This document shows, piece after piece, positions 27,748 through 64,000 of a stretch of 64,000 nt of DNA. Origin of the DNA: Alphaproteobacteria bacterium. GTDB taxonomy: Bacteria; Pseudomonadota; Alphaproteobacteria; SHVV01. The stretch spans positions 1,263,362 to 1,327,361 of the forward strand of contig CBDHDJ010000004.1 of the NCBI GenBank assembly GCA_965261645.1, read 5' to 3'. Below the pieces are notes generated by a model. It was given only the letters and a program-made list of their open reading frames with translations, did no database searches and was not told the DNA's origin. The stretch's first letter is position 1, and every line of letters starts with the position of its first letter. A program made the translations under genes and the position numbers.

Positions 27748-27838
27748 GGAGGGGTGGCCGAGTGGTCTAAGGCGCACGCCTGGAGAGCGTGTACACGTCA
27801 CAAGCGTGTCGTGGGTTCGAATCCCACCCCCTCCGCCA
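27748..27838 (+). tRNA. tRNA-Ser(GGA), type II
   Basis: Acceptor GGAGGGG/CCCCTCC, anticodon loop CTGGAGA, long variable arm, T-loop GGTTCGAATCC, 3' GCCA. 91 nt. The island starts at its 3' side. Confidence 0.9.
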
Positions 27839-27956
27839 TCCTGCTTCAGCGGCAGACGCGAAGCACGATGCCCTCCGAAGCCTAGGCGAAGGAGTGTCTC
27901 CCGAAGCTCGTTCGCGGGCAACGGGAGACTGCCAGGTGGTATGTCTATTTCCTCGA

Positions 27957-28769
27957 ATGGTGCTGTCACGGTAACTGGCTGGTGTCAGCTGCGGGTGGCG
28001 AGTAGCTTCCTGTTATGAACAAGATCAGCTACCGCCGACATCGGTTTCCTGCAGAGATAATCCAGCGCGCCGTCTGGCTGTGTTTCCGGTTTCCGCTCAG
28101 TTACCGCGATGTGGAGGATCTGCTCGCTGAACGTGGTGTCGATGTTTCTTACGAGACGATACGGCGCTGGTCTTTAAAGTTTGGGCAGGCCTATGCCCGA
28201 AAACTGAGACAATCACGCCCTCGACCAGACGACCGGTGGCACCTTGATGAGGTGTTTTCCTCCATCAACGGAAAACGGATGTATCTATGGCGGGCGGTGG
28301 ACAGCGAGGGTGAGGTGCTGGATATCCTGGTTCAGTCCCGGAGGAACAAGAAAGCAGCACTCAAGCTGATGCGCAAACTGCTCAAGAAGCAGGGGTATGC
28401 GCCGAATAAGGTGGTGACCGATAAACTGCCATCTTACGGGGCAGCATTGCGTGATCTCAACATGACGGGGAAACACGTTACCGGCGGACGGAGCAACAAT
28501 CGGGCGGAGAATTCGCACCTGCCGGTTCGACAACGAGAACGCAGGATGCAGGGCTTCAAGTCATCAGGATCGGCGCAAAGGTTTCTCTCCACCCACGCCG
28601 CCATCTACAACACCTTCAATGTCCAACGTCATCTGATCACTCGCAAGACAATGCGCCAATTCCGCGGTGACGCGATGAACACGTGGCGGACCGTGACCGC
28701 TGCTGCTTGAGCCGCTCAGTTCAGACGTTCAACTGCGACCTGCCTTCGTTAAGTTGACAGCACCCTACT
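27957..28769 (+). mobile_element. IS6-family insertion sequence (about 0.8 kb)
   Basis: Single transposase ORF bounded by imperfect terminal inverted repeats (GGTGTGCTGTCACGG ... CGTTAAGTTGACAGCACCC). No matching 8-bp target-site duplication was seen. Confidence 0.7.
28015..28710 (+). CDS. IS6-family (IS26-like) DDE transposase
   Basis: 231 aa with an N-terminal HTH (RFPLSYRDVEDLLAERG) and DDE catalytic region (WHLDEVF ... YLWRAVD ... RAENSH). Confidence 0.85.
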   Translation: MNKISYRRHRFPAEIIQRAVWLCFRFPLSYRDVEDLLAERGVDVSYETIRRWSLKFGQAYARKLRQSRPRPDDRWHLDEVFSSINGKRMYLWRAVDSEGEVLDILVQSRRNKKAALKLMRKLLKKQGYAPNKVVTDKLPSYGAALRDLNMTGKHVTGGRSNNRAENSHLPVRQRERRMQGFKSSGSAQRFLSTHAAIYNTFNVQRHLITRKTMRQFRGDAMNTWRTVTAAA

Positions 28770-28969
28770 ATCTGCCGAGCGATCTCGAGGCCAGCGTCGG
28801 CACCTTCGTCGAGCACTACAACCACCGCCGCTACCACGAAAGCCTCGCCAACCTCACCCCCGCCGACGTCTACTTCGGCCGGGACCACGCCATCATCGAG
28901 AGAAGGAGAAAGATCAAAAACCTGACCATCAAAAAACGCCGCTTGGCCCATCACAACCACGCGGCTTAA
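28754..28969 (+). pseudogene. C-terminal remnant of an rve-type (IS3/IS481-like) transposase
   Basis: Only the terminal 71 codons are present (FVEHYNHRRYHESLANLTPADVYFGR). It starts at the IS6 right end, which implies truncation by the IS6. Confidence 0.6.
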
Positions 28970-29201
28970 CATCAACCAGGATGAGCCAGAGCCTCCGTTA
29001 AGAACAAGCCCAGATGTCCCAAATGTTTTGATGACGGACATCTTGGTGGCACAACCCATCGGACTTGCCTTTTGAGCGATTTCGAGCCACGCTCAACTTG
29101 GCTGAAGGGTGCCACATGGGAAATCCCGGTTGATTCAACAAATCGAGGATAGGACCCGCTCTGCTGACGCGATGATCGGCGGAGCGGGCAGGCGGTGAGC
29201 G

Positions 29202-30383
29202 GTGCAACCAGGATCTGCTGCAAAGGCGTTCATCGGCGATGGCGTCGATGCGACGCGGCAACCACTCCGCCGGGCACGTCACCTACCGGGCTACTTCTAC
29301 ACATCGCCTGAAATATTCGCGATGGAGAAGGAAAGGCTTTTCCTTCGGGAATGGCTATGCATGGCCCGATTGGAGGAGATCGAACAGCCCGGCGATTACA
29401 TGACCTTTCGGGTGATGGACGAGCCCGTCATCATCGCCCGTGACGAGGCGGGGCATGTCAACGCGTTCGCCAATGTATGCCGACACCGTGGCGTCGAGGT
29501 CGCGTCTGGGGCCGGCAACCTCAAGGAATTTTCCTGCCCTTATCACGGTTGGACCTACAACCTCGAGGGCCGACTCATCGGTGCACCGTACATGAAGGAG
29601 GCCGAGGGCTTCGATCCAACAGAGTGCCGCCTTCAGCCCCTCAAAACCGATTTTTGGGGCGGGTTCATCTTCGTCAATTTTGATCTGGATGCCGCTCCTC
29701 TCGCCACTGTGATCGATGATTTCGACAGAGATTACGCTCCCTTCCGGCCGGAGGAATGCCGGCTCGCCTTCAAGGTGGAGGTGGAGCTCGACTGCAACTG
29801 GAAATTCGCCATCGAGAATTTCACCGATCAGTATCATGTCGCCGTGATTCACACTGATACGCTCGCGCGTGAGTATCCCTCCGTCGACGAGCTGCCCTTC
29901 AAGCTGCACAAGCGCGGCGGTTTCAGCGGCCATTTCGACGGCGCCCTGCGCAATGCGGCAGGCCAGACCCTGTTCGAGGAGACTGGGTTCGGCAAAATGC
30001 CGTGGATGGCGGACCAGCGCGACAGCATCGCGTGCAACGGTTACATGGCGCCGAACATGCACATCTTCGCGTTCGCCGACACCGTGCACCCGTTCGTCAC
30101 GTGGCCGGTCTCGGTCGATAAGACGATCGGTATCGATTATGTGCTGTTCCCCGAAGAGGTCATCGCCCGACCCGACTTCGATGAGAAGGTCGAAATCTAT
30201 AAGCGGTTCACGACCGACGTCATCGAGGCCGATCGCGACATGGTCCGCTCGCTGCAGCGGGGGATGGATTCGCGGCTCTTTAATCCCGGCCCCATGTCGA
30301 TCGCCGAGGACACCATCCACAACGCCGCCAACTATTACCTCGAAAGCCTCTTCGGCGATTCGAGCGCCCCCGTCACGCCCTGA
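29202..30383 (+). CDS. Rieske non-heme iron oxygenase alpha subunit
   Basis: Rieske motif CRHRG-x16-CPYHGW, and a catalytic-domain mononuclear iron site (HVAVIH ... D). No adjacent beta subunit or reductase. Confidence 0.8.
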   Translation: MQPGSAAKAFIGDGVDATRQPLRRARHLPGYFYTSPEIFAMEKERLFLREWLCMARLEEIEQPGDYMTFRVMDEPVIIARDEAGHVNAFANVCRHRGVEVASGAGNLKEFSCPYHGWTYNLEGRLIGAPYMKEAEGFDPTECRLQPLKTDFWGGFIFVNFDLDAAPLATVIDDFDRDYAPFRPEECRLAFKVEVELDCNWKFAIENFTDQYHVAVIHTDTLAREYPSVDELPFKLHKRGGFSGHFDGALRNAAGQTLFEETGFGKMPWMADQRDSIACNGYMAPNMHIFAFADTVHPFVTWPVSVDKTIGIDYVLFPEEVIARPDFDEKVEIYKRFTTDVIEADRDMVRSLQRGMDSRLFNPGPMSIAEDTIHNAANYYLESLFGDSSAPVTP

Positions 30384-30400
30384 GGTCCCCGCCAGACAAA

Positions 30401-30429
30401 ACAAGCCCCGCACGAGGCGGGGCGCTTGT
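30401..30429 (+). terminator. stem-loop terminator candidate after the Rieske gene
   Basis: ACAAGCCCCGC-ACGAG-GCGGGGCGCTTGT forms an 11-bp stem with one bulge. The U-tract is weak. Confidence 0.35.
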
Positions 30430-30668
30430 CGAAACGCAGAGGCGCTCGAACTACATGACGTCCTTGGGCAGATCCTCGTTGGTGAAATAGGCTTTTAATG
30501 TATGGGTGCGCCGGCGAGGTGGATACGGCGCAACAGACCCAGGCAAGGGGATCCGAACCGATCTGACACTTGCGCGAGATCCTGCAAAGCAGGACACCCT
30601 CGCGTCCATTGCGATGAAGCACGCCATGATGGAAGCATGATGAAACCGTCCACAAAACGTGTCGCGCA

Positions 30669-31886
30669 TTGAACAAGCTGGCCCTGACCAGCGACGCCAT
30701 CGAGGCGCTGGAGCCCGGGGACAAACCCTGGATCGCCTGGGATGATCAACTCACGGGCTTTGGCGTCCGGGTGCATCCCTCCGGGACCAAATCCTTCATC
30801 GTCAACTACCGCGCCGGAGACGGCGGCAGAAAAGCCCCTAACAAGCGCGTCGTTCTCGGCCACCATGGCGAGATATCGCCCGGCCGGGCGCGGCGTCTGG
30901 CGCGGCAGGTCCTGGACGAGGCCACCGCCGACCCGGCGGGCGGGCGCCCCGCGACGCCGGGCATGCCCGTGCTGGAGCAGGCCTTTGAGGCGTACATGGC
31001 GGCCAATCCCCACCGGGCCGAGCGCACCAACGAGATTGACCGTGACAGATTCAAGCGATGTCTCGGCGACTGGCAGATGCGTCCGCTCGATGCTATCACT
31101 CGCCGGGACGTGGAAGGCCCTTTCAACCGCATCACCGGGGATAGCGGCTGGTCGATGGCCAACCAGTCGATATCGCTCCTGCGTTCGATCTATCGCCGAT
31201 CCAGTGTCGATTTCGAGGACTTGCGCAATCCGGTTGATCTGTGGCTCGCCGGCGGCGGCAGGTATCATCGCCCGAGACGGCGCAAGATCTCCGCCCCGGC
31301 CGAGGTGCTGCCGTGCTGGAAGAAGGGCATCGAGTCGACGGTCGGCATGATGGCGGCCCGGGACGCATTGTGGTACGGGCTCTATACCGGCATGCGCCTG
31401 AACGAAGTGCTGCCCCTGCGCTGGGAGCGCGCGGACATGGCGGGGCTAGTCTTCCGGGTTGAGGAGACCAAAACGGGCGAGCCTCTGGAATTGCCCATCA
31501 CCCGGCAGCTGGCGGCCATCCTCGAACGCCGTTGGGCGGCGCGCGAGGCGCTGCCGGGCAGTCTTCGCGACTGGGTGTTTCCGTCCAGCCGGCCCGGCAC
31601 TCTGGGCCATGTCGCGACCCTGATGCCATACTATGCACCGATCGGCAAGGCGGGTGGGGCCAGGTTCTGGTTCCACGCTCTGCGCAACTGCTTCATTACG
31701 GTGGCCGAGCGCGAGCTGATACTGCCGCGGAGCCTGACCAAACGGCTGGTCAACCACGCCCGCTCCAGCGACATCACCGAAGGATACGCTGCCGAGTGGA
31801 CCGTCGGGCAACTCCGTGAACCTGCACAGCGCATTGCGGACCGGATCGAGGCGTTGATGAACGCTCGTGGGGCCGATACGGCCTGA
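30669..31886 (+). CDS. int: tyrosine-type site-specific integrase, P4-like with N-terminal arm-binding domain
   Basis: TTG start. DUF4102-like N-terminus (FGVRVHPSGTKSFIVNYR), then catalytic R...HxxR...Y residues (WFHALRNCFIT ... GY). Lies 2.8 kb from tRNA-Ser. Confidence 0.85.
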   Translation: MNKLALTSDAIEALEPGDKPWIAWDDQLTGFGVRVHPSGTKSFIVNYRAGDGGRKAPNKRVVLGHHGEISPGRARRLARQVLDEATADPAGGRPATPGMPVLEQAFEAYMAANPHRAERTNEIDRDRFKRCLGDWQMRPLDAITRRDVEGPFNRITGDSGWSMANQSISLLRSIYRRSSVDFEDLRNPVDLWLAGGGRYHRPRRRKISAPAEVLPCWKKGIESTVGMMAARDALWYGLYTGMRLNEVLPLRWERADMAGLVFRVEETKTGEPLELPITRQLAAILERRWAAREALPGSLRDWVFPSSRPGTLGHVATLMPYYAPIGKAGGARFWFHALRNCFITVAERELILPRSLTKRLVNHARSSDITEGYAAEWTVGQLREPAQRIADRIEALMNARGADTA

Positions 31887-32004
31887 GCCCGCGCTTCAAT
31901 TGCTCGCCTACCCGTGGGGCGGTCGGGTTCGGTCCATACATATATGTGTGTCCATATATGCCGGAATGGCGACACTCGTCGGGAATCTGGCATCATCATC
32001 GAGA

Positions 32005-33249
32005 TCAGGGGATGATGAGCACCATTCCCGCAAAGATGAGATCTGGGTTGTCGCCGATCAGGAAGCGGTTAGCCTCCGCGATGCGTGGCCAGTAATTGCC
32101 GTTGGCGTAAAAGAACGCGGCGACGGTGGATAGGGAGTCACCCTCCTTAATGGTGTAAATTCCGTGCGCGTTGGTGAGGCGCGCGACATCCCTCTGTGCA
32201 TCCTCCAGCGCGACGCGGATGCGCTCGATCTCGGTGAGCCGTGCCTCATTGAGATGGTTGAGCTTCGCCTTCTCGGTGAGCAGCTTCTCGTACCGCTTGT
32301 TGAGATCGGCCGCCATGGATTGCGCCCTCCCGAGTTCACCGGCAGCAGTGCTCGCAGTTCGCCGCAGGGCAGCGGTGGCGCCGTCGAGTTCATTGAGTCG
32401 AAGGATTAGGCGCCTACGCTCGTTTGCCATCGCCTCAAACTCGGCACGCAAATCGCTTCGCTTGCGTTCGATGGTATCGAACTTCGCCAACAACTCTCGA
32501 TTTTCCTGCTCGATGCGGCTCTTCTCGCTGCGCTCGCGCGTGAACTGCACACTTAACGCTGCCGCCCCATCTCGTTCCTTGGCCAGACTCTTCCGGACAC
32601 GGGCCAGCTCATCTCGCGTGCCATCGCCTGCGTTCTCAAGCTCTATAGCTCGCGTCCGCAACTCCTCGCGCTCAACCGTGACCGCTTCGAGTTTCTCCCG
32701 CATATCATCACGTTCCGCCACCAGTTGATCGACCCTTGAATGCGCCTTTCTCAGCTCAGCCGAGAGACGCGTGTTCTCGGCGCTGCTGATCGAGCGGGCG
32801 GACTGTAACTCAGTGGCGAATCGATCGCGCTCCGCCATCAGTCGGTCCCGCTCTCTTGAGAGTTCTTCATGCGTGGCTCGCAGCGTTCGAAGCCTACCCT
32901 CACGCTGTTTATCCGCCGCACGGCGCTCCGCGAAGGCATTTTCCAGTTCGGCATACTTGGCAATGAGCGCCTCCTCGGCCGCTACCGCAGCAGCGCGGCC
33001 AGCTCGCTCCTGCACGAGTTCGGCTTCAAGTGTTTGCATACGCTCCACGGCTATATCGTGTGTGCGCTGGACTTGTTCGAGCGCGTCTCCCGACGCCTTG
33101 AGCCGCACTTGCAACTCTCCGCTCCGCGTTCGGGCTTGTTCCTCAATTGACGTCTTCTCGCGAGTGACTTCCACAAGGCGCCAGCCCATCACCAGCATCG
33201 CCACTGCCAGCACAACTAGTCCAGCATTCTTCATGCCGGCTGAACCCAT
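32005..33249 (-). CDS. membrane-anchored coiled-coil protein with C-terminal LysM domain
   Basis: N-terminal transmembrane helix, about 330 aa of heptad-rich E/R/A sequence, and a C-terminal LysM (YTIKEGDSLSTVAAFFY ... NPDLIFAGMVLIIP). Confidence 0.7.
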   Translation of the reverse strand: MGSAGMKNAGLVVLAVAMLVMGWRLVEVTREKTSIEEQARTRSGELQVRLKASGDALEQVQRTHDIAVERMQTLEAELVQERAGRAAAVAAEEALIAKYAELENAFAERRAADKQREGRLRTLRATHEELSRERDRLMAERDRFATELQSARSISSAENTRLSAELRKAHSRVDQLVAERDDMREKLEAVTVEREELRTRAIELENAGDGTRDELARVRKSLAKERDGAAALSVQFTRERSEKSRIEQENRELLAKFDTIERKRSDLRAEFEAMANERRRLILRLNELDGATAALRRTASTAAGELGRAQSMAADLNKRYEKLLTEKAKLNHLNEARLTEIERIRVALEDAQRDVARLTNAHGIYTIKEGDSLSTVAAFFYANGNYWPRIAEANRFLIGDNPDLIFAGMVLIIP

Positions 33250-33446
33250 CGTACGTTCCTCAGCTTCTGCCCGACGTCGAATTACGGTGAAATCTTAGGG
33301 AATCAAGCACGGGATTTGAACCGCGCCGGTTTAGCGGAGACCTTTATCTGTCATTTATCTGTTACTTGAGCACGTGTATTTGGCGCCGATCGACGTAACA
33401 ACCTATTGACATCGTCAGAGTCTGACGGGTCAAAGTTCGACGCCAG

Positions 33447-33657
33447 CTAACACTATACCGGCATGCGCAATTGTTTCATCACGATGGCCAAGCACGACCT
33501 GTTGCTGCCGCGGAGCTTGCCCAGGTGGCTAGTCATACACGCCTGGTCCAGCGAAATCACCGACGGGTACGCCGCCGAGTGGACCTTGGGGCAACTCCGT
33601 GAACCTGCGCGGCGAATCGAGGCGTTGATGAACGATAGCGAGTCGGCTACGGCCTGA
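33447..33657 (+). pseudogene. degenerate 3' fragment of a second integrase gene
   Basis: Encodes NCFITMAKHDLLLPRSL...GYAAEWTLGQLREP. This matches the C-terminus of the intact int at about 80% nucleotide identity with the interior missing. Confidence 0.65.
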
Positions 33658-33722
33658 GACAACGCCCCAGTCGCTCGTGAGTCGGACCCGATTTCCTTGG
33701 ACACAGAATTGGCTTAATCGAA

Positions 33723-34154
33723 GTGTCCAAGGAGGACCGGAACATGACCGATAATTTTGATAAGAAAGTTGCTGTTGATGGGCCTGTGGTAAATGCGGGC
33801 GAGCTTGGCTCGTCCCCGTTTTCCCCAGGCCAGGCTTTGCCGGCAGGCCCGCTGGGACTTGGCCAGCGATGGACGGTGGCGCGCAAGCGTGAGGTCGTTC
33901 TGCGGCTTTTGCGTGACGAGCCGGTGCAACTTCTGTCGCGCCAGTTGGGCGTAGAGATCTTCCGGCTCGAGCAGTGGCGTGAGAAAGCGACCGGCGGGAT
34001 CGACGCCTCGCTCAAGCAACGCAAGGGCGATCCGGTGCAGGCGGAACTGGATAGCGCCATGAAGCGGATCGGAGAGTTGACCATGCAGGTGGAACTGCTG
34101 GAGGCCAAGACGGAGACCTTCGGCCCTTTGGGGCGGCGGAGGTCGCGGCGATGA
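33723..34154 (+). CDS. IS3-family transposase OrfA (HTH / leucine zipper)
   Basis: Typical OrfA HTH (REVVLRLLRDEPVQLLSRQLGV) with a coiled-coil tail. Confidence 0.8.
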   Translation: MSKEDRNMTDNFDKKVAVDGPVVNAGELGSSPFSPGQALPAGPLGLGQRWTVARKREVVLRLLRDEPVQLLSRQLGVEIFRLEQWREKATGGIDASLKQRKGDPVQAELDSAMKRIGELTMQVELLEAKTETFGPLGRRRSRR

Positions 34155-34522
34155 GTGCCGCCACCTCGCCCGGCACGGGTCTGGCCTACGGCCTGCGGCG
34201 GGTCTGCGCCGCCTGGGGCATGGCCCGCTCCTCGTTCTACGCCATGACCTCCGGCCAGCACGCTGAGCAGCCGCCGGCAAAGCGTCGGGGACCGAAGCCC
34301 GCGATCTCGGACCAGGCGCTGCTGGTGGCGATCGAAGCCGACCTGGAGGCATCGCCCTGGGAGGGCGAGGGCTACCGCAAGGTCTGGGCTCGGCTTCGGG
34401 TCTGTCGCGACATCCGGGTTGCCCGCAAGCGGGTGCTCCGCCTGATGCGCGAGAACAATCTGCTCTCGCCCCATCGCTGCCGCCGCCGTGGCGGCAATCC
34501 CCATGACGGTGAGATCATCACT
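34151..34522 (+). pseudogene. IS3 orfB 5' portion, interrupted
   Basis: HTH_21-like N-terminus that reads up to HDGEIIT and then runs into the IS110 insertion. Confidence 0.6.
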
Positions 34523-36166: not shown

Positions 36167-36706
36167 GCATCTCATGCCCCGAACCTCATGTGGGGCACCG
36201 ATGGCGTTCGGGTGTTCACGGTGGACGACGGCTGGGGCTGGATCTTCACCGCCGTCGAGCATTGGAACGCCGAGTGTGTCGGCTGGCATGTCTGCAAGCG
36301 CGGCGACCGCTTCGCCGCCCTGCAGCCGATCTCCATGGGGCTTGCCGGGCTGTATGGCTCGACCGCGGCCGGCGCGGCTCGGGGGCTGGCCTTGCGGATG
36401 GATCACGGCTCCCAGTATCTGTCGGACCACTTCACCAACCAGATCAAGTTCTGGGGCATCCAGCCGTCCTACGCCTTCCTCGCCGAGCCCCAGACCAACG
36501 GCGTCGCCGAGCGGTTCAATCGCACGCTGAAGGAACAGATCATCCATGGTCGCATCTACCGCAACATCGCGGAGCTGCGGGACGCCGTCCGCGACTTCGT
36601 CGAACTCTACAATGCCCAGTGGATCGTCGAAAAGAACGGCTACATGAGCCCCGCTCAAGCTCGTCAGGCGTGGCACGCCGCGATCTCAATCAGGCCCGCC
36701 GCGTGA
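36167..36706 (+). pseudogene. IS3 orfB 3' portion (rve integrase core)
   Basis: DDE core WGTDGVRVFTVDDGW ... DHGSQY ... AERFNRTLK. It continues the frame of the 5' portion. Confidence 0.7.
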
Positions 36707-36754
36707 GACAAACTTGTGTCCAAGGAACCGGGTGCGCTACAAAATTGCGTAAAG

Positions 36755-36799
36755 CAACCATCGACAATTTACCGAGATTCCGGAGTGAATCCAGCTAAC
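36755..36799 (+). repeat. about 35-45 bp imperfect direct repeat, copy 1, upstream of the M23 peptidase gene
   Basis: CAACCATCGACAATTTACCGAGATTCCGGAGT has about 27/33 identity to copy 2 at 38237-38280. Confidence 0.45.
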
Positions 36800-36866
36800 T
36801 TGACAAAGCCGTCGTGCGCTACACTCGGCAACCCGCACGGATTTACGAGAGAACACCGCAAAACCA

Positions 36867-38225: not shown

Positions 38226-38236
38226 ATGGCTTATGG

Positions 38237-41990: not shown

Positions 41991-41994
41991 GGAC

Positions 41995-57217: not shown

Positions 57218-57697
57218 ATGAACCGAACTCTCGTCATCTTCGTTGCATTGTCCGTGTTCTTCTCTATCGGTCCTCTCGCCGATGAAATCCCTTCCGGATT
57301 CGACCCGGGCAGTTCCAAAGCCAAGGGATTGATCCTCACGTTCGAAGACTGGCCGCCGGATAGTGTGGACACGGACCCTCTTCTCCAAAAGCTTCATTCC
57401 GCCGGGCTCAAGGCGGCGCGCAAACTGCCGCGGTTCAGGGTTTGGGTGTTCGAATGGGATGAATGGCAGGAGGGCCGCAGGGCCGAAAACCTGTGTATTG
57501 AACTGCTGCTGGACGATCGAACCTCTTCCCTGTTGGAGAGCTGTGAACCGGATTACTTGCTGCATCCCGCCCGGCCCGCGGCCGGCGGCAACCAGCCGCG
57601 GTGTCATGCCGGTCCGATGTCGATGCGCTCGCCCCAGGGCTCGCGGTTCCTTGTCCCCGGCGGCGACGGCCCCCAGTTGCAAAAAATCACGGGATAG
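57218..57697 (+). CDS. secreted hypothetical protein
   Basis: Clear signal peptide MNRTLVIFVALSVFFSIGPLA. Its 3' end overlaps the convergent vWA gene by about 94 nt, so the C-terminal extent is doubtful. Confidence 0.3.
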   Translation: MNRTLVIFVALSVFFSIGPLADEIPSGFDPGSSKAKGLILTFEDWPPDSVDTDPLLQKLHSAGLKAARKLPRFRVWVFEWDEWQEGRRAENLCIELLLDDRTSSLLESCEPDYLLHPARPAAGGNQPRCHAGPMSMRSPQGSRFLVPGGDGPQLQKITG

Positions 57698-58962
57698 CCG
57701 GGCTTGGTCTCGGGGTAGCTGTCGCATTCCATGTCGGTGAGGTAGAGGCAACAGCTTGGACGCACCCCATGCTCATGGAGCCATGCGAAGCCTGGCCGAA
57801 AATCGGTCCCGCCCCGTCCCTTGATCGTGATGCTGTCCGGTAGTTCCCCGGCGGGATACTGGGCTGCGTCCTGCAGCACCGCGTCGACCTGAAGGACATA
57901 GATGCTGTCCGGTTGCAGTTCGGCGGAGATCTCGCGAATCTCGGCCCAGAACAGGGTCAACGTCTCGCCCGGCAGCGAGCCGGAGGTGTCGATGATGATG
58001 GCGATGGCATCGGTACCCTCCGAATGCCTCGAGGGCAGATAGAGGCCGCTGTCGATGAAACGGCGGTTGGGGACACTCCAGCTATAATCGCGGCGCGCGG
58101 CATCGGTCATGTAGCGGCGCAACAGCGACCGCCAGTAGAGGATGCTCCGATGCGCTTGCCGGATCGTCTCCTCGACTGCGCCCGGCGCGTTGCCTTGCGC
58201 TCGGGCGAGGCTCGCGGCCTGGTGCATGGCCTCGTCCCAGGCCTGCTCCTCGGCGGGTGTGTTCAGAGGCGATTCGTCGGACTGGCCGGTGGCGTCGTCG
58301 CGGCGCTCGTCCGCGTCCATGACTTCGCCGGTGCCGCAAGGGTCGTGGCTGGCGGGCATTTGCCCGGATGGTTTCGAGTCCGCGCTGCCGCTGCCCGGTC
58401 CCGGTTCGTCCTGCTCTTGCGGATTGCGGTCATCGGTTGGATCGGACGGAGCGCTTTGGTCTTCGTCGCCATCACCGCATTGGGGGCCGGCAGCGCTGCC
58501 ACTGTCATCCACATCGCTGGATGAACAGGCATCGCCCGGATCCTCTGAATCGGCGGACGGTTCCGGAAGCCGGTCGTAGGCCTGCTCGGCGCTGATGCCG
58601 TCCCAGGCTTCGGCCTCGGGCGGCAGTGCAAAGCCCGCGTCCCGCAGCAGTCCGTGGCTGACCAGCTGAGAGGCACGTTGCCAGCGCTCGGGGTCGCGGC
58701 CGCGCCGCCGGGTGTGATGCTTCAACGCGCAGGCCAGGACCACGCGCGCGAGCGCGGTCTTGATGTGATCGGCATCCGTGTCCGCCACCCACCCGGGCGC
58801 GTAGCGGATATCCTTGCCGTCGCTGGCCAGGGTCTCACGGGTTGCGTCGGCGCGGATCGGAAGGCGCAATGCCAGGCTGCCGAAGAAGGGCTGGTCGCGC
58901 AACAGCGCGGTCACGCAGTCGCTGACGCGACGGGCGGATTCCGAGTGGGCAGGGGCGGCCAT
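57604..58962 (-). CDS. vWA-like domain protein with N-terminal putative metallopeptidase domain (DUF2201-type)
   Basis: N-terminal DQPFFGSLALRL region, a long acidic low-complexity linker, and a C-terminal vWA-like MIDAS motif (AIIIDTSGS ... TD). Its start overlaps the stop of the upstream gene. Confidence 0.7.
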   Translation of the reverse strand: MAAPAHSESARRVSDCVTALLRDQPFFGSLALRLPIRADATRETLASDGKDIRYAPGWVADTDADHIKTALARVVLACALKHHTRRRGRDPERWQRASQLVSHGLLRDAGFALPPEAEAWDGISAEQAYDRLPEPSADSEDPGDACSSSDVDDSGSAAGPQCGDGDEDQSAPSDPTDDRNPQEQDEPGPGSGSADSKPSGQMPASHDPCGTGEVMDADERRDDATGQSDESPLNTPAEEQAWDEAMHQAASLARAQGNAPGAVEETIRQAHRSILYWRSLLRRYMTDAARRDYSWSVPNRRFIDSGLYLPSRHSEGTDAIAIIIDTSGSLPGETLTLFWAEIREISAELQPDSIYVLQVDAVLQDAAQYPAGELPDSITIKGRGGTDFRPGFAWLHEHGVRPSCCLYLTDMECDSYPETKPGYPVIFCNWGPSPPGTRNREPWGERIDIGPA

Positions 58963-59858
58963 CAGGCTGCCTCCCTGTCCGTGGCGGCGGGCGCGAAGTA
59001 GCCCGCGAATTGCGCCGTGAGCGCATCGGCGTCGCGCTTGACCTGCCGGCGGAGGTTGGGATCGAAGCGCCCCGACGGGCGCAGGGCGTCCGGCTCGATG
59101 CCGGCGAACTTGTCCTTCACCTCCCGGCACAGCATGGCGAGATCGTCGTCGGCGAAGATGTTGAGCCGGGGCACCACATCCACCAGCTCCCTGATGTTCT
59201 CGATCAGGCTGTCCCGGAACACGAACGGTTTGCCGTTCTCGTCCGCGCGCAAGCGTTCGCCGACACGCTCGACCGCCTCGCCGAGGCGCCGGTAGAGATC
59301 GCGCTGCGCATCGTTGAGGCGGGTCCGGACCTGTTGCTCTATATCCCGCTTGACGCGCTCGGTCTCGCCCTGGGCCAGATCGGCCATGAAGTGGCGCGCG
59401 TCGGGGACCGGGACGATGCGGTAGCGAATGGCGAACTTGCCATGAAGCGCCTCCGTGCCGGGATAGTCCTCCAGGCGGAACAGCCGGCCGAGGTCGAGGC
59501 GGGCCTGGTCGACGTAATCGTCGTAGTCCTCGATGAAGCGGGCGCGCTCGCGCACCACGCGCTCGACCAACGAGTCCAGCGCCGCGGTGTAGCGGTCGTA
59601 GTTGGCGACGGTGAGCAGGCGGCCGCCCTGGTCGTCCCACGGCAGAGTGTTGGCATAGTGACTGGTCCTTGCATTGCTCATGGTCGCGGCCAGCGCGGCG
59701 AAGGCCTGCTTGGGCAGGAGGCGTTTGTTGTAGCGCCCGGCGTTGGTGTCGGCATCGTGATGGATGGCGACCTGTTGGCTGGCCTGGCGGTCGTAGAGCC
59801 TGCCGGACCAGGAGTTGATCCGCAGGCTGACGAGCATGGCATCATGGGTGAGATTCAT
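58962..59858 (-). CDS. conserved hypothetical protein between the MoxR and vWA genes
   Basis: 299-aa ORF (MNLTHDAMLVSLRINSWSG...) translationally coupled to the vWA gene. No domain recognised. Confidence 0.5.
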   Translation of the reverse strand: MNLTHDAMLVSLRINSWSGRLYDRQASQQVAIHHDADTNAGRYNKRLLPKQAFAALAATMSNARTSHYANTLPWDDQGGRLLTVANYDRYTAALDSLVERVVRERARFIEDYDDYVDQARLDLGRLFRLEDYPGTEALHGKFAIRYRIVPVPDARHFMADLAQGETERVKRDIEQQVRTRLNDAQRDLYRRLGEAVERVGERLRADENGKPFVFRDSLIENIRELVDVVPRLNIFADDDLAMLCREVKDKFAGIEPDALRPSGRFDPNLRRQVKRDADALTAQFAGYFAPAATDREAA

Positions 59859-59881
59859 GGCGTGGGTCTCCCGGGGTGGTG

Positions 59882-60907
59882 TCAGCGGGTTTTGGTAGCG
59901 GCCCACTGGATAAAGGCCTGGGTATGCTGGAGCGCGGGCTCGCGGCGGATGCAGGAACCGACGAGGAACTCGCCGACCTCGCGCCGGAGGCGCGTGGCAT
60001 AGGTGACGATGGCGCCGAGATTGATGTCGTCGGCCATCCTGTAGAGCGAACCGCAGAGCGCGATCAGCGCACTGGCGTTGCCGGGGACCACGGCGCCCTC
60101 GGGATCGTCGATGACGGTGCGGGGATGGGGCAGTTCGTGCCAGACCTTCAGGAACGCCGAGAACTCGACCGCCGCGGCCTCGCCGACGGTGCCCCGGAAC
60201 AGGGCCCGCTCGGCGACCGGATCGAGGCCACCCCGGCGGTGCACGATGTTCGAGACCATTTCCCAGGTCCTCGGACACGGGAAAGCTTTCTCCGTTGATT
60301 GGGGGTTGAAGGCATGCAGCAACTCGGGCCGCATCGACACGAAGAAAAGCACCTCTGGAGCGATTCCATTCCCCGCGCCCCAGGCGCACCAGTCCGTCGC
60401 ATCGACCCGGATCTCCAGATGGACGAAACGCGAGGCCAGCGGCGTCGGCATCCGGTGGACGACGCCGCGGTCGCCCTCACGGTTGCCGCAGGCGATCAGC
60501 GCGGCGCCCTCGGGGAGTTCATACTCGCCGCATTTGCGGTCGAGCACGAGCTGGTACAGGGCCGCCTGCACCATCGGCAGGGCCGAGGGCAGTTCCTCCA
60601 GATTGATCAACCAGCTTCCGTCCGCATCCGACGGCGGCAGGAAAGCAGGCGGCGCCCAGCGGGTGCGGTCGGCGCTGTCGCGCCACGGGATGCCGCGCAG
60701 ATCGACCGGGTCCAACAGCAGGGCGCGGACATCGACATACTCACGGCCGGCTTGCGCCGCGACCTGTTGGGCGATCTGACTCTTAGCGCACCCTGGAGCT
60801 CCCCAAACCACGCAGGGCTGCCGGGCCTCGACCAGCAGCGCCAGTGTGCTGGCGAGTTCGCTCGGGCGCAGCGAGTAATCGGCGGAGATGGTATCGGGCT
60901 CGGTCAT
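59882..60907 (-). CDS. MoxR-like AAA+ ATPase (AAA_5)
   Basis: Walker A GAPGCAKSQIA, Walker B LINLEEL, sensor and arginine-finger regions. MoxR/RavA-like size of 341 aa. Confidence 0.85.
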   Translation of the reverse strand: MTEPDTISADYSLRPSELASTLALLVEARQPCVVWGAPGCAKSQIAQQVAAQAGREYVDVRALLLDPVDLRGIPWRDSADRTRWAPPAFLPPSDADGSWLINLEELPSALPMVQAALYQLVLDRKCGEYELPEGAALIACGNREGDRGVVHRMPTPLASRFVHLEIRVDATDWCAWGAGNGIAPEVLFFVSMRPELLHAFNPQSTEKAFPCPRTWEMVSNIVHRRGGLDPVAERALFRGTVGEAAAVEFSAFLKVWHELPHPRTVIDDPEGAVVPGNASALIALCGSLYRMADDINLGAIVTYATRLRREVGEFLVGSCIRREPALQHTQAFIQWAATKTR

Positions 60908-61083: not shown

Positions 61084-61584
61084 TCAGGATTGCCGGCGGT
61101 GGAACGCCGTCCTGCCGCTCACGGTTCCCGTCCCCCGCGGCCGGTTCGCCGGCTTTGCCGAACCTGCGGCGTCCGCGGGCTTGCCGGCGAGGATGCGGGC
61201 AGCGGCTTCGAGTTCAGATCCCGATTCGACGATACGACCGGCGGCGCGCGCGGCCTCGGCGTAAATGGACAGGGAATGGTTGGCGGTAAAATGAATATCG
61301 CGCTCGATGCCGAGCCCGAAGGGTCCCCGGTATTCGGTCAATTCGAGCAAACCGATTGACCCCAATTCGGGTGTGCCGAAGCCCAAATCAGCCAGGCCGA
61401 ATCCACATTCGTCAGGGTATTCGGGATCGATCTCCGACAGCAGCAAGGTGCCGGTCCCGCCAGCATTGAACCACTTGACCACGGGCTCGTGGTCGGGCCC
61501 CCTTCGGGTCCCATTTGCAAGCAGCTTGGTGCGCTGTGCTTCGGTGAGCAGTTTCATGGAATGGTCCTCTCGAATATCGGTCAT
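61084..61584 (-). CDS. DUF2958-family protein, common on ICEs and plasmids
   Basis: MKLLTEAQRTKLLANG ... PVVKWFNAGG ... TWLLSEIDPEYPD ... GLADLGFGTPELGSI. Start taken at the second Met. The family name is by recall. Confidence 0.6.
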   Translation of the reverse strand: MTDIREDHSMKLLTEAQRTKLLANGTRRGPDHEPVVKWFNAGGTGTLLLSEIDPEYPDECGFGLADLGFGTPELGSIGLLELTEYRGPFGLGIERDIHFTANHSLSIYAEAARAAGRIVESGSELEAAARILAGKPADAAGSAKPANRPRGTGTVSGRTAFHRRQS

Positions 61585-61688
61585 CGGGATGCACCCGCGC
61601 CCCGGCCCGGTGTCGGCGGGCCGAAAGCCGGCCCCGGCCCGGAGTGGCGCGAAGCAGGCGGTTTGCGATGGATGAATGCCGTCGGCGA

Positions 61689-62183
61689 TCAGCCGGCCGG
61701 CGGCGGTCCGGTGTCGCCGGGATCCAGAATGAGCACGCATGCACGGCCGCCGCTGACGGCCACATCCGGAGCGCCATCGGCTCTGCGGGCGACGGTGACG
61801 AGAGGCTTGTTGCCCGGCGGGGCCGGCGGATCGGTGACTTCCGTCGTGACGGTGCCGGCGTGTTCGACGAAACGAATAAGGACGGTGCCGCCCGCGACCT
61901 CAATGCCGCCGGGCGGGCGGAGGCCGGTCAGTGTGACTACTGGCGGCTCGCCGTTCTGGGTGAAACGGTCCGGAACGGGGATCGCGGTGTCGCCCCAGGG
62001 GTCGGCGTCCTCACCCTCGGCAATGGCATCGACAAATGTTGGGCCGCAATCGTCGGAGGGTTTCCAGTGGGGATCGTCGCCGGCTAACTCGATGGCCTTT
62101 TCCAGCGCCGCGTCGAGGGTATCGGCTTCGAGCGTTACAGTGTTGTGGTAGTGGGATGAGTAGCCGCAACAGACGGTATAGTG
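61689..62183 (-). CDS. hypothetical protein
   Basis: 165-aa ORF starting at MTHYTV. The upstream part of the listed ORF is Arg-rich junk. Confidence 0.4.
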   Translation of the reverse strand, partial: HYTVCCGYSSHYHNTVTLEADTLDAALEKAIELAGDDPHWKPSDDCGPTFVDAIAEGEDADPWGDTAIPVPDRFTQNGEPPVVTLTGLRPPGGIEVAGGTVLIRFVEHAGTVTTEVTDPPAPPGNKPLVTVARRADGAPDVAVSGGRACVLILDPGDTGPPPAG

Positions 62184-62185
62184 AG

Positions 62186-63355
62186 TCATTGCGCCGTCTC
62201 CCGGTCGCCGGCATCGGTTGTGGGTTCCGTGCAAACGGGTCCGATATCGACGCTGACCTTGCCGCCGCACACCACGATGGTGACCGTGCGGCCGCGCGGC
62301 ATGAGCCAGAAGATTTCCCGCCATACCGCATCCGCGATGGTGCGCTGGCGGGCTTCCTCGACCGAGCACAACAGCTTGAGCGACATATGCAGGGCGTCTT
62401 CCTCGAAGCGGGTGAGTTGTGTTTCCCAAGAGTCCGCATCCGCGTCGTCGCTGGGGCTGAAGAACGCGGCGCGCAGCAATCGGGCGAGTTCCTCGGGCGC
62501 GATGCCGCTGTCCGCCGTCACCAGGGGCAGCGCGTCATGGATCGATGACCAGGCCTCGCCCGCGAAGGCGAGATCGGCGGGAACGGCGATGGTGTCGCAT
62601 TTGTGGAAGCAATGGCGCGGTGATTTAGGCGGATGCAGAACATTCAGGTGCATCACGATGTCCTCGGGCCGTTCCGGCTCTTCGCCGTTCTCCCGGTTGG
62701 TGAAGTAATCCAGAGAACGAACGGCGCCATCCACGGTCACAAGGGTCTCGATGCCGGTGACGCGCGCGAGCGTGTCGTACCAGGGATAACCCTCGAAACG
62801 TGGCTCGGGGGCGAACAGCCGGAGCGTGCGTTCCGATCCGTCCTGGAGCCCGGCAAGGCCGAGGGCGCGATGAAGCGCCCGGGCCTCGGGCGGCTCGGGG
62901 TCGGCCTGCATCACCAGCGCGCCGATGCCTACGCCTGCGAAAACGGACCGCTCGTCCCAATAGTCCGTGTCGGCGATGGCGGGACGCCAGGGACGCAGTT
63001 CGGCGGGCGGCTCGGGCATCTCGATCCCCGCCTCTTTCGCCTGGTGCCAGTCGGTCCAGGCAACGCGCGGAGCCGGATCGGCCTGCGCCATGGCGCGGTA
63101 GACGGCAAGCCGCGCGGCCTCGCGCATCTCTTCCAGAAACGAGGTCTCTACCGCTTCCTTTCTCGCGGGCAGGACCAGCTCCAGATCGGGGCAGGAGTCG
63201 ATGTCGGCGCGCGCCGACCAGACGCCGCCTTCCACGGCGTCGATCTGTGGCAGGCGCACCGGCAGGGTCAGGCCATGAAAGTTGACGTCGGGGACGCGGT
63301 AGCCCGCATGGCTGTCCTTAAAAACGCCGAAGACGAGGCCCTTCCATGGTTCCAC
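62186..63355 (-). CDS. hypothetical protein, partner of the GHKL-ATPase ORF
   Basis: 389-aa ORF with a GTG start. It overlaps the 3' end of the GHKL ORF by 88 nt in another frame. This may be a separate gene or the continuation of a frameshifted single gene. Confidence 0.45.
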   Translation of the reverse strand: MEPWKGLVFGVFKDSHAGYRVPDVNFHGLTLPVRLPQIDAVEGGVWSARADIDSCPDLELVLPARKEAVETSFLEEMREAARLAVYRAMAQADPAPRVAWTDWHQAKEAGIEMPEPPAELRPWRPAIADTDYWDERSVFAGVGIGALVMQADPEPPEARALHRALGLAGLQDGSERTLRLFAPEPRFEGYPWYDTLARVTGIETLVTVDGAVRSLDYFTNRENGEEPERPEDIVMHLNVLHPPKSPRHCFHKCDTIAVPADLAFAGEAWSSIHDALPLVTADSGIAPEELARLLRAAFFSPSDDADADSWETQLTRFEEDALHMSLKLLCSVEEARQRTIADAVWREIFWLMPRGRTVTIVVCGGKVSVDIGPVCTEPTTDAGDRETAQ

Positions 63356-63975
63356 ATGGAGCGCGCCGTCGAGAAAGGCGCGCCGCTCGACAACCTCGCC
63401 GTCGATGGTACCGGCAGGGGATAGTGGCGAGCAGCGGTCTGCAGGAAAGCGCGCACCGCGTGGGGCGCTTCGGACGCGTCGAAGGTAACCGAGGTTCCAT
63501 GGGGCCAGGGGGCGCTGTCGTCCGGGACGACATGGGCCCCATCGCGGCCAAGAAAGTGAGCGGGCTCCAGAACCAGGCGGTAGCCGGGGCTTGGATCCCC
63601 GCCGGGGACGCGCCAGCGCAACGTGCAGCGCCGGCGCGAGAGGGCGAGAAGCCCGAACCCGGCGGGATCTTCCGCCTCGGCGATGCCGTCCTTCCAGACG
63701 CTCTCGCCGAAGGTCAGCAGGACGGCGGGATCGGCGATTCCCACGCCGTCGTCGGTGATAGTGACGCGGGTGGTATCTCCGTCCTGCTCGATGGTCGCGG
63801 CAACGCGGTTGGCGCCGCCACGGCGTGAGTTTTGCAGCGTCTCGGTGAAAATATCGGCAAGGCCAGCCGAAAACAGCCGTGTCACCTTGTCGATGGCGCT
63901 GTCGCCGACCCGGGCGTGGATCGTGGCGGAACTATTGCCGGCCTCGGCCGTAACGGCATTCTGTGCGGTAGACAT
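63268..63975 (-). CDS. GHKL-type (histidine kinase/HSP90/MORC-like) ATPase domain protein
   Basis: N-box ETLQNSRRGGA, G1 box DDGVGI and G2 box AGFGLL. An AGGAGA RBS lies 6 nt upstream of the ATG at 63975. The C-terminal 100 aa are of uncertain authenticity. Confidence 0.55.
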   Translation of the reverse strand: MSTAQNAVTAEAGNSSATIHARVGDSAIDKVTRLFSAGLADIFTETLQNSRRGGANRVAATIEQDGDTTRVTITDDGVGIADPAVLLTFGESVWKDGIAEAEDPAGFGLLALSRRRCTLRWRVPGGDPSPGYRLVLEPAHFLGRDGAHVVPDDSAPWPHGTSVTFDASEAPHAVRAFLQTAARHYPLPVPSTARLSSGAPFSTARSMWNHGRASSSAFLRTAMRATASPTSTFMA

Positions 63976-64000
63976 GCAGGTTCTCCTGGTTGTCGATGCG

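Follow-up and report, generated by a model that had tools for sequence, protein, structure and literature searches.

Integrative and conjugative elements (ICEs) that are integrated at tRNA genes and carry P4-type integrases include ICEMlSymR7A, found at tRNA-Phe, and ICEclc, found at tRNA-Gly. The relaxases of these two elements are not known to be MOBF. Their transfer systems are of the Trb/VirB type or the ICEHin1056 type (PMC3158045), while MPF_I, the type IVB class of IncI (R64) and Dot/Icm, is called only when at least four marker genes are present and is rare in chromosomes (Guglielmini et al. 2011, PMC3158045). The window analysed here, 64,000 nucleotides from an alphaproteobacterium, resembles tRNA-integrated ICEs in that acquired DNA extends from the 3' side of a tRNA gene, lies in a chromosome, and encodes an Arm-DNA-bind_3 tyrosine integrase, a relaxase and accessory functions (ssb, parB-like). 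It differs from them in showing no att repeat in the window, in having an integrase that is not adjacent to the tRNA and a relaxase that is MOBF, and, unlike in ICEMlSymR7A and ICEclc, the transfer genes of its relatives are of the DotA/TraY type, the window copy itself being without a coupling protein (T4CP) or a type IV secretion system (T4SS). The 36 kb downstream of tRNA-Ser are foreign DNA, consisting of an IS-scrambled patch and the DNA-processing half of a chromosomal conjugative element. We regard it as probable that the whole is a decayed ICE remnant within an IS-shuffled island, its transfer machinery apparently lost; as such, it would be a commonplace example of a genomic island in decay. 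The acquired DNA spans position 27839 to at least 64000 and falls into two parts, A (27959–39369) and B (39370–64000 and beyond). The first-pass annotation, which had described this DNA as acquired and mosaic, with an ICE-type DNA-processing module and a far boundary outside the window, was right in these respects, and its interpretation as a whole is partly supported.

The last native feature is an intact tRNA-Ser(GGA) on the forward strand (27748–27838; ARAGORN; Rfam tRNA, 60.6 bits), upstream of which lie lepA, pheS, pheT, thrS, queG, rpoN, kdsD and a 3-hydroxyacyl-CoA dehydrogenase gene. The arrangement of lepA, then a small membrane protein gene, then tRNA-Ser(GGA) is found again in four distant alphaproteobacterial genomes; among distant relatives, an unrelated P4 integrase comes after it in one (L002) and a Tn7-like element in another (L013), while in a third (L001) the contig breaks just after it. 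GC and GC3 are lower on the downstream side of 27.8 kb, falling from 0.659 and 0.84 in the chromosome segment to 0.615 and 0.74 in the IS-rich patch and to 0.652 and 0.79 in the ICE block. Between the tRNA and the island there is a 120-bp spacer (27839–27958) with no match in related loci, and homology to the related locus L085 begins only at 27959. At this point lies an IS6-family element on the forward strand (27959–28764; transposase 28015–28710; Pfam DDE_Tnp_IS240, 132.8 bits) with 17-nt terminal inverted repeats (GGTGCTGTCA...), and the end of this element, 120 bp past the tRNA, is the junction of the island with the tRNA side. This junction is not an att site. When the flanks of the IS6 element were read, no 8-bp target duplication was found.

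The integrase itself, int1, is a P4-type tyrosine integrase on the forward strand (30640–31886; Pfam Arm-DNA-bind_3 and Phage_integrase), with homologues of 85–93% identity. Alignment reveals a 2-nt insertion after codon 8 that places the canonical ATG out of frame, leaving an ORF (30669–31886) of 405 aa as against 414 aa in the homologues. Two remnants accompany it on the same strand: a 73-nt 3' remnant of an outer tandem partner (30494–30566), which aligns to the final 73 nt of the gene for the L086 integrase (429 aa), and a second integrase 3' fragment (33464–33677), about 80% identical to the int1 3' end in a repeat search, which abuts an IS3 element and occurs in the integrase locus L128 too. 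The first-pass annotation had linked the integrase causally to the tRNA, and the corresponding explanation is that a single intact ICE was inserted by its integrase into the tRNA-Ser 3' end, with T4SS, coupling protein and attR lying past 64000. In favour of such an element, the island begins immediately behind a tRNA that is intact, the P4-type integrase lies 2.8 kb farther on and points the same way, and in relatives other integrases use this locus. Nevertheless, the island meets the tRNA side at an IS6 end that has no target duplication, no copy of the tRNA-Ser 3' end exists elsewhere in the 64-kb window, the int1 start is frameshifted, and of 46 related integrase loci, a set that does not include L128 and L129, not one has a tRNA adjoining the integrase gene, the sole tRNA among them being the tRNA-Pro that L119 has 4 kb upstream. 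In addition, the segment 27959–39003 recurs elsewhere at 99.9% identity with other flanks, and the causal link is not upheld. The position next to tRNA-Ser would rather reflect a hotspot for mobile genetic elements combined with an IS6 junction than demonstrable integrase-mediated insertion into the tRNA.

Part A is an IS-bounded patchwork. Behind the IS6 element, and truncated by it, comes the 3' remnant of an IS3-family orfB on the forward strand (28765 to ~29040), recognised by reading the sequence and by plasmid matches annotated as IS3 transposase; about 300 bp more of it is present in L085. It is followed by a cargo gene for the alpha subunit of a Rieske ring-hydroxylating oxygenase (29202–30383, forward; Pfam Rieske and Ring_hydroxyl_A), by int1 with its remnants, and by a gene for a coiled-coil LysM protein (32005–33249, reverse; Pfam LysM), which is linked to int1 in L128 too. 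An IS3-family element on the forward strand (33678–36741; orfA 33723–34154, orfB 34151–34843 and 36188–36706; Pfam HTH_21 and rve_3) is interrupted by an IS110-family element, whose transposase is encoded on the reverse strand (34981–36081; Pfam DEDD_Tnp_IS110 and Transposase_20). The patch is completed by the end fragment of an IS1595-like element (36742–36808), 92.5% identical to the end of an IS1595 copy in the relative L082, by a gene for a MepM/ShyA-like M23 peptidoglycan endopeptidase (36867–38225, forward; Pfam Peptidase_M23 and NCBIfam matches), and by an IS5-family element on the forward strand (38281–39369; transposase 38345–39319; Pfam DDE_Tnp_1_5 and DDE_Tnp_1) with 23-nt inverted repeats found by an inverted-repeat search. 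No target duplication was seen at the IS3 ends, when these and their flanks were read, or at the IS5 flanks. As in IS6/IS26-type rearrangement of islands, IS6, IS3 and IS5 ends without target duplication stand at every discontinuity in the window, and a sister sequence has alternative junctions; there is no composite transposon with paired IS6 copies in the window, and nothing in the IS-mediated rearrangement is unusual compared with the known cases.

The sister sequence is L085, in which 27959–39003 is flanked by an S24 fragment on the left and by IS21 and a truncated ParB gene on the right. L085 is a deletion derivative that has lost the whole backbone, and, judging by this copy, rearrangement of the region appears to be ongoing. 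The same features invite the suspicion of a chimera, repeated IS copies having led a metagenome or draft assembly to misjoin the IS-rich patch to the tRNA flank and the ICE block, since all internal junctions coincide with IS ends without target duplication and a near-identical block has other flanks in another assembly. We consider such a chimera highly improbable. Each IS occurs once in the window, so that there is no repeat within it to mislead an assembler; the internal order of 11 kb is independently confirmed by L085 at 99.9% identity, and its IS21-to-ParB junction is the product expected of a deletion from a window-like arrangement.

Part B comes from a chromosomal conjugative element that is widespread among uncultured Alphaproteobacteria, of which it forms the half for DNA processing and establishment. 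Except where stated otherwise, its genes lie on the reverse strand. At its tRNA-proximal edge is a conserved backbone gene of 149 aa, cut by IS5 after codon 96 (39365–39652); tblastn with the protein of L083, one of the two closest relatives (96% nucleotide identity), recovers residues 1–96 only, at 99% identity. An EF-hand protein of 161 aa (39821–40306; Pfam EF-hand), also backbone and 99% identical to that of L083, is followed by umuC (40671–41990; Pfam IMS, IMS_C and DUF4113) and umuD (41995–42414; Pfam Peptidase_S24). These two genes (40671–42414) fill a cargo slot of variable content, flanked by the genes for the relaxase and the EF-hand protein; in L130, the other close relative (91–93% identity), it holds other cargo. 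The MOBF relaxase-helicase TrwC (42675–47096; Pfam TrwC, 230.8 bits, and AAA_30; NCBIfam MobF, 211.8 bits, cutoff 100) is full length at 1473 aa, equal to its homologues, and contains an internal 222-nt tandem repeat (42711–43143). Like the TrwC/TraI relaxase-helicases of R388 and F, it combines an N-terminal TrwC domain with an SF1B helicase; unlike them, it is chromosome-encoded, has a repeated C-terminal module with two length classes (~1473 and ~1820 aa), and shares at most 32% identity with any plasmid relaxase in PLSDB. The oriT is presumed to lie upstream of the relaxase in 47097–47500, where no convincing inverted repeat was found as a sign of it, and beyond this interval a conserved 100-aa gene, 87–91% identical in L083, L084 and L130, diverges from the relaxase on the forward strand (47501–47803).

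The remaining backbone comprises a DUF2493/YAcAr (SLOG) protein of 305 aa (48146–49063; Pfam YAcAr), a Toprim/DUF7146 protein (49352–50389) and SSB (50603–51040), the latter two recognised by Pfam and full length against L084, three small conserved genes of 63, 104 and 85 aa (51147–52216; tblastn of L082 and L084 products), and a strawberry-notch-type helicase of 1538 aa with an N-terminal methyltransferase-like region (52355–56971; Pfam AAA_34, 361.8 bits; Helicase_C_4, 291.7 bits). Next come a DUF2201 metallopeptidase/VWA protein (57604–58962; Pfam), a 303-aa protein (58962–59858) and a MoxR-like AAA protein (59882–60907; Pfam), all full length against L082. A block at 61084–62189 holds a DUF2958 protein (61084–61557; Pfam DUF2958) and a 166-aa protein (61689–62189), and the window closes with a GHKL-like ATPase gene of 596 aa (62186–63975), frameshifted by a 1-nt deletion near 63409. 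This frameshift and that of int1 could be assembly errors. In relatives L082 and L085, ParB lies just past the equivalent of position 64000. Since all backbone genes except those noted as broken are full length, the element is not heavily degraded, and mostly intact backbone genes also suit a single ICE. Everything that the first-pass annotation had listed was found again in the window, namely the tRNA, the upstream housekeeping genes, the integrase and fragments, IS6, IS3, IS110 and IS5, and an ICE-type block with MobF relaxase, umuDC, DUF2493, Toprim, SSB, methylase-helicase and DUF2958; the IS3 orfB remnant, the IS1595 end, the 73-nt integrase remnant, the 1-nt ATPase deletion and the 2-nt integrase insertion come in addition to that list. 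For the methylase-helicase, the helicase part of the label is strong, and the methyltransferase part has a weak PADLOC mad2 match (8.9e-7) and the names of plasmid homologues behind it.

Collinear homology of the window to L083 (96%) and L130 (93.5%) stops at 39366, the outer IS5 end, and IS5 marks the breakpoint of the ICE backbone. In L083 the order continues from TrwC through umuD, umuC, the EF-hand gene, the 149-aa gene and a 256-aa gene to T4CP, DotA/TraY and a TraW-like gene; in L130, despite different cargo after TrwC, the EF-hand gene is likewise followed by the 149-aa gene, the 256-aa gene and T4CP. As in IncI (R64) and Dot/Icm systems, L083 has a DotA/TraY-family protein (240.8 bits, cutoff 100) beside T4CP, together with a TraW-like one; unlike in those systems, the genes occur in relatives and not in the window, and the MPF_I markers seen are two, in one relative only, the TraW-like match being below cutoff. 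Tblastn with the L083 proteins gave no match to T4CP, DotA or TraW in the 64-kb window. That the T4SS and coupling-protein genes have to be located past 64000, as claimed earlier, is not supported. T4CP lies past the EF-hand and 149-aa genes in both L083 and L130, which is the tRNA-proximal side in window terms, where IS5 breaks the window, and L082, the sole relative seen past the window end, has ParB there, then IS1595, HTH/M78 and CBASS genes as defence and other cargo, and no transfer genes. Both observations weigh against a single intact ICE, even though the window and L084 (92% identity) share the order and relative orientation of integrase(s), cargo, umuC, umuD and TrwC, which suggests that integrase and relaxase belong to one element; on balance we find an intact, integrase-inserted ICE unlikely. 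According to the decay reading, IS-mediated deletion or rearrangement would have cost the element its T4CP and T4SS module as well as the junction originally present on the integrase side, so that it would no longer be able to transfer itself, and its intact relaxase would at most act in trans with a related element. The transfer genes may instead have moved to somewhere past ParB, outside the window. A mobilizable configuration without a T4SS may also be normal for part of the family, instead of a sign of decay, because L084 too has no T4CP or T4SS from umuC to its integrases.

The 3' end of the DUF2493 gene (48190–48307) is a recurrent recombination breakpoint among relatives, which raises the possibility of a nested composite. 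An integrase-led element (integrase pair, cargo, T4BSS, T4CP, EF-hand gene, umuDC, TrwC, 100-aa gene) would have inserted into the DUF2493 3' end of a second element, whose genes would start with ParB, continue with those for the methylase-helicase, SSB and Toprim, and end with DUF2493. The half with the relaxase would differ in origin from the half with ParB, and IS shuffling would have left the tRNA as nothing more than the neighbour on the outside. Of five related loci, three break within this 3' end (window 48190–48200 or 48304–48307), and in two of the three an integrase lies at a distance of 110–215 bp, past GATGTCAGG-like motifs that are repeated. In L083 the DUF2493 3' segment is duplicated over 118 bp, the identity of L083 to the window falls from 96% to 89% to 80% across this point, and in L130 the integrase pair is joined to the 100-aa/TrwC side, as expected for a circular junction or tandem array. 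However, L086 and L130 differ in how the integrase is oriented relative to the DUF2493 gene, L083 has its two copies in mutually inverted orientation, a third integrase (L086, 429 aa) stands in an unrelated context, the DUF2493 3' fragment is present in none of 41 metagenome integrase loci, and the window has no second copy of the site. We hold this two-element origin to be possible, if somewhat doubtful; it is compatible with the decay reading.

The block from 39.4 to 64 kb represents an abundant chromosomal family, 90–97% identical in many metagenome contigs. The relaxase has 1851 relatives at E ≤ 1e-20, with clusters of up to 314 members (79–97% identity), and among the relatives of the ATPase there are clusters with 522 and with 1004 members. 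The best relaxase match among PLSDB plasmids has 32% identity and the block has no near DNA match among plasmids, in keeping with a chromosomal rather than plasmid-borne island. The plasmid pLX01 of Thioclava nitratireducens (NZ_CP123975.1) has DUF2493, Toprim and strawberry-notch methylase-helicase genes in the same order, with SSB nearby, at 43–50% amino acid identity (50% for the helicase) and only ~72% DNA identity. Unlike the window, pLX01 has a MOBP relaxase and MPF_T, while the window block is chromosomal and linked to VWA, MoxR, DUF2958, ATPase and ParB genes. The pLX01-type block is an accessory or leading-region block of alphaproteobacterial conjugative plasmids.

The region is an acquired chromosomal segment that joins a patchwork bounded by insertion sequences (the IS-rich patch, 27959-39369) to that half of a conserved conjugative-element family which serves relaxase, establishment and maintenance functions (the ICE block, 39370-64000 and beyond). 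The canonical position of the type IV coupling protein (T4CP) and type IV secretion (T4SS) genes is interrupted, and frameshifts are present in the integrase and in one backbone gene. Upstream of the intact tRNA-Ser(GGA) gene (27748-27838, plus strand; ARAGORN and Rfam), the functions of lepA (927 bits), pheS, pheT, thrS, queG, rpoN, kdsD and a 3-hydroxyacyl-CoA dehydrogenase gene agree with the housekeeping chromosome proposed by the first-pass annotation, and, because these are core chromosomal genes, the region is chromosomal and not plasmid-borne. In a LepA search of the genome collection, the best relative among the matches listed was 79% identical. Among the matches listed, lepA, a gene for a small membrane protein and tRNA-Ser(GGA) also follow one another in this order in the distant alphaproteobacterial loci L001, L002, L009 and L013. 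The tRNA is followed in L002 (Stellaceae MAG; 4836-6362) by a P4-type integrase unrelated to the P4-type tyrosine integrase of the window (int1; 26% identity), and in L013 (Ferrovibrio MAG; 5399-10480) by a Tn7-like element that encodes TniQ, TnsA and TniB together with a Mu-type transposase; the contig of L001 (MAG; 12277-12376) stops at the tRNA. The locus does hold as an insertion hotspot in distant relatives.

In the window, foreign DNA starts on the 3' side of the tRNA, with IS6 beginning 120 bp past the gene and GC and GC3 falling there. The compositional shift between chromosome and island is modest (GC 0.659 and GC3 0.84 in the chromosome, 0.615 and 0.74 in the IS-rich patch, 0.652 and 0.79 in the ICE block). 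The 120-bp spacer gave no informative match in related loci, and the tRNA was the sole Rfam match over the island. The earlier view of a tRNA-Ser-linked island stands insofar as foreign DNA runs from the tRNA onward; its first foreign feature is the end of IS6, int1 is separated from the tRNA by 2.8 kb that contain IS6, an IS3 remnant and a Rieske gene, and the 3' end of the tRNA (GGTTCGAATCCCACCCCCTCCGCCA) is not repeated anywhere else in the window. Moreover, a tRNA adjoined the integrase gene in none of 41 metagenome loci of int1 relatives (46-73% identity) and tRNA-Ser was absent from all of them, the scan covering integrase loci other than L128 and L129, the two closest full-length integrase contexts. 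The only tRNA among the scanned integrase loci was a tRNA-Pro 4 kb upstream in L119, and none was found in any of the five element-family loci L082-L086.

The integrase int1 (30669-31886, or 30640-31886 with its displaced start) carries Arm-DNA-bind_3 and Phage_integrase domains, and a site-specific recombinase is thus present. A 2-nt insertion after codon 8 (30664-30665), common to the metagenome locus L085, displaces the canonical ATG out of frame and could be a real mutation. The second, degenerate integrase reported earlier amounts to 214 nt of a 3' end at 33464-33677, sharing about 80% identity with the end of int1, and a further 73-nt remnant lies at 30494-30566. Integrases of the int1 family also occur as direct tandem pairs with partners about 70% identical (L084:22732-24422, L086:8636-11245, L130:6085-8609), and the window retains one copy together with 3' remnants of two others. 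The unit of int1, LysM gene and integrase 3' fragment recurs in L128, where ICE genes are not nearby. The arm-type motif GGATGTCAGG was matched five times in the window against 4.4 expected, which is chance level.

Pfam and NCBIfam searches bore out the annotated content of the IS-rich patch downstream of the tRNA, namely IS6, an IS3 split by IS110, IS5, the Rieske oxygenase and the P4-type integrase. Their limits, taken from the IS ends, are 27959-28764 for IS6, 33678-36741 for IS3 with IS110 inside it and 38281-39369 for IS5; an IS3 orfB remnant follows immediately after IS6, and an IS1595 end lies at 36742-36808. Target-site duplications are absent at IS6, IS3 and IS5, and these elements are therefore placed at rearrangement junctions and not at simple insertions. 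IS6 has a DDE_Tnp_IS240 transposase (132.8 bits) and terminal inverted repeats, and the 8-mers flanking it are unlike each other, as is expected after IS6-mediated rearrangement. An M23 peptidase and a LysM protein were considered as T4SS remnants and rejected: the sole support is a faint IcmG/DotF match (E = 0.004), and the LysM gene accompanies int1 in L128 without nearby ICE genes.

In the metagenome locus L085 (ERZ25069191 ctg559923), the block from IS6 to IS5 (window 27959-39003) recurs with 99.9% identity between other flanks. An unrelated S24-peptidase fragment precedes its IS6 on the left, its int1 has a 46-bp deletion, and on the right an IS21 within IS5 directly adjoins the N-terminal portion of ParB. 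This right junction fits loss of the complete backbone, by deletion, from an arrangement like that of the window, which indicates that the region is still being rearranged in nature; L085 is thus a natural deletion derivative that has lost the entire ICE backbone.

In the ICE block, UmuC, UmuD, a MobF relaxase, DUF2493/YAcAr, Toprim, SSB and DUF2958 were confirmed with Pfam and NCBIfam, and a DUF2201/VWA protein and a MoxR-like AAA protein are also encoded. For the proposed methylase-helicase, the helicase half is secure as a 1538-aa strawberry-notch protein, and its N-terminus is methyltransferase-like by a weak PADLOC match; PADLOC and NCBIfam added nothing further for the unnamed backbone proteins. 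Every gene from 39370 to the window end is recorded on the minus strand. Compared with the genes called in relatives, all but two are full length. The 149-aa gene adjoining the EF-hand gene is cut by IS5 after codon 96, and the 596-aa GHKL-like ATPase gene (62186-63975), of which hundreds of homologues keep all 596 aa, is frameshifted by a 1-nt deletion at 63409 that could be either a real mutation or an assembly error. The relaxase-helicase, full length at 1473 aa, is a clear member of the MOBF family (NCBIfam MobF 211.8 bits, cutoff 100), in which an SF1B helicase comes after the TrwC-type domain (230.8 bits). No convincing oriT-like inverted repeats were found upstream of TrwC. Set against an integrative mobilizable element (IME), which has an integrase and a relaxase/oriT between att sites and lacks a T4SS, the window holds an integrase and a relaxase and no T4SS, and neither att sites nor an oriT were recognised in it.

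The backbone belongs to a family that is very common and highly conserved in environmental Alphaproteobacteria and absent from plasmid collections. Relaxase and ATPase each have more than 1000 relatives in public metagenome assemblies, with many clusters at 79-97% identity and some comprising hundreds of members. Megablast against the plasmid collection returned only matches of about 71-74% at the DNA level, to the IS elements and to the genes for DUF2493, Toprim and the helicase, and the best plasmid match of the relaxase protein was 32% identical. Viral contigs searched with DotA and TrwC gave no match. The contigs of readable relatives measure 0.35-1.2 Mb; the family is one of chromosomal elements and not of plasmids. 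As seen from the related element loci L082 and L084, its genes keep one order: ParB (843 aa), the ATPase, a 166-aa protein, DUF2958, MoxR, a 303-aa protein, VWA, the methylase-helicase, three small genes, SSB, Toprim, DUF2493, a divergent 100-aa gene and TrwC. Rhodobacterales plasmids have the DUF2493/Toprim/methylase-helicase block in common with the window, at 43-50% amino-acid identity. The literature searched held no description of the family; a proper one could be of moderate interest to researchers of mobile elements, and the data supporting it lie in other contigs than the one studied here.

According to the first-pass annotation, any T4SS or T4CP genes of the island had to be located past position 64000. 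In the window, no ORF matched a T4CP family in Pfam, no mating-pair formation genes were present, and tblastn with the T4CP, DotA and TraW of L083, the closest relative, showed no similarity to the 64 kb. The locus L083, 96% identical to the window over 8.9 kb, continues past TrwC with umuD, umuC, an EF-hand gene, the 149-aa gene, a 256-aa gene, a TraG/VirD4-type coupling protein, a DotA/TraY-family protein and a TraW-like protein, the last four on the opposite strand to the preceding genes. The run of EF-hand, 149-aa, 256-aa and T4CP genes recurs in L130 (T4CP region 22070-23731; 91% relaxase identity), with other cargo in place of umuDC. The coupling protein of both loci, and the type IVB-like mating genes that L083 has behind it, therefore lie to that side of the relaxase which in the window faces the tRNA, and homology of the window to both loci ends at 39366, the outer end of IS5. 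On the other side, the alignment with L082 reaches base 64000, and the end of the L082 ParB gene is another 67 nt away, which puts ParB just past the window end; L082, the only relative seen beyond the ATPase, has ParB, then IS1595, an HTH/M78 pair and CBASS, and suggests a defence-cargo zone there. The CBASS locus (L082:1522-4300) consists of a SMODS cyclase, an E2-like protein and a patatin effector. With the transfer genes of relatives on the tRNA side, homology stopping at IS5 and none of these genes in the window, the supposition that they must lie beyond 64000 is unsupported; an intact ICE is unlikely, and loss of the transfer module at the IS5 junction is more likely. In L084 (92% identical), umuC and cargo are followed by two integrases without transfer genes, and T4SS-less configurations may be common in the family.

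We consider it probable that the region is a decayed ICE remnant in an IS-shuffled island. IS-mediated deletion or rearrangement would have removed the transfer module and the original element end, leaving a remnant without conjugation of its own. Past 64000, one would then expect ParB (about 843 aa) and cargo, and neither T4CP, VirB4, DotO, DotA or TraY nor a copy of GGTTCGAATCCCACCCCCTCCGCCA. The intact relaxase makes mobilisation in trans by a resident relative conceivable; this would need working excision, which is doubtful because no att sites are recognisable. The region works like a tRNA-associated ICE or island with a P4-type integrase, but departs from one in having no T4CP and T4SS genes in the window and an integrase that does not adjoin the tRNA; att repeats, too, have so far not been found, the distal end of the element lying outside the window. 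It is no new kind of system, being a decayed example of a known one, whose family is apparently undescribed in the searched literature, and is to be annotated as an IS-shuffled island with a probably immobile ICE remnant, not as an intact tRNA-Ser ICE. Its umuDC and oxygenase cargo is probably no longer self-transmissible.

The transfer genes of the relatives resemble the IncI/Dot-Icm type IVB system. To count as MPF_I, a system needs four or more genes specific to that type (TraI, K, L, M, N, P, Q, R, W, Y) in one cluster with VirB4/TraU and a T4CP, and this type was reported to be rare in chromosomes (Guglielmini et al., PMC3158045). The window has none of these genes. The L083 locus, beyond which the remainder of its cluster extends, has in its transfer region (18766-24428) a T4CP, TraY/DotA above its cutoff (240.8 bits against 100) and TraW below its own, which makes two marker genes seen against the four or more required. 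These close relatives of the window element thus have a MOBF relaxase together with a coupling protein of TraG type, and behind the latter L083 encodes the DotA/TraY-family and TraW-like proteins.

A further reading of the mosaic, in which the DUF2493 gene offers an internal attachment site and elements are assembled by nesting, draws on breaks in three of five related loci (L083:14-224 and 8827-9026; L086:20693-20898; L130:8609-8924). They fall at window-equivalent 48190-48200 or 48304-48307, within about the last 55 codons of DUF2493 (window 48146-48320), where the identity of L083 to the window drops from 96% to 89%. In two of the three, L086 and L130, an integrase gene lies 110-215 bp from the break behind repeated GATGTCAGG-like motifs that adjoin it; L083 has a diverged 118-bp duplication of the DUF2493 3' segment. 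The recurrent breaks, adjacent integrases and tandem integrase pairs speak for such nesting, but orientations disagree between loci, and we hold this reading to be possible but rather doubtful. Its specific form is likewise tentative and somewhat improbable. The window would be a relic of a modular system whose elements, each headed by two tandem P4-type integrases, target the 3' end of a conserved ICE gene (DUF2493, 48190-48307) and not a host gene, so that site-specific nesting would assemble and reshuffle conjugative elements; the parent family would be an abundant, undescribed chromosomal lineage of Alphaproteobacteria combining a MOBF relaxase with type IVB-like (DotA/TraY) transfer.

Variation within the family is also visible around the relaxase. 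The slot of the umuDC genes (40671-42414), flanked by the relaxase and EF-hand genes, is variable in content: in L130 (14847-19164) it holds a transposase, a LytTR regulator and fragments of RPE65-type oxygenase instead. The C-terminal part of TrwC (42711-43143) contains two copies of a 211-nt unit, 79% identical and 222 nt apart. Its relatives fall into two length classes of about 1473 and about 1820 aa, and in L086 the long form has three matches to this C-terminal segment; the length of the protein thus seems to be determined by the number of repeats.
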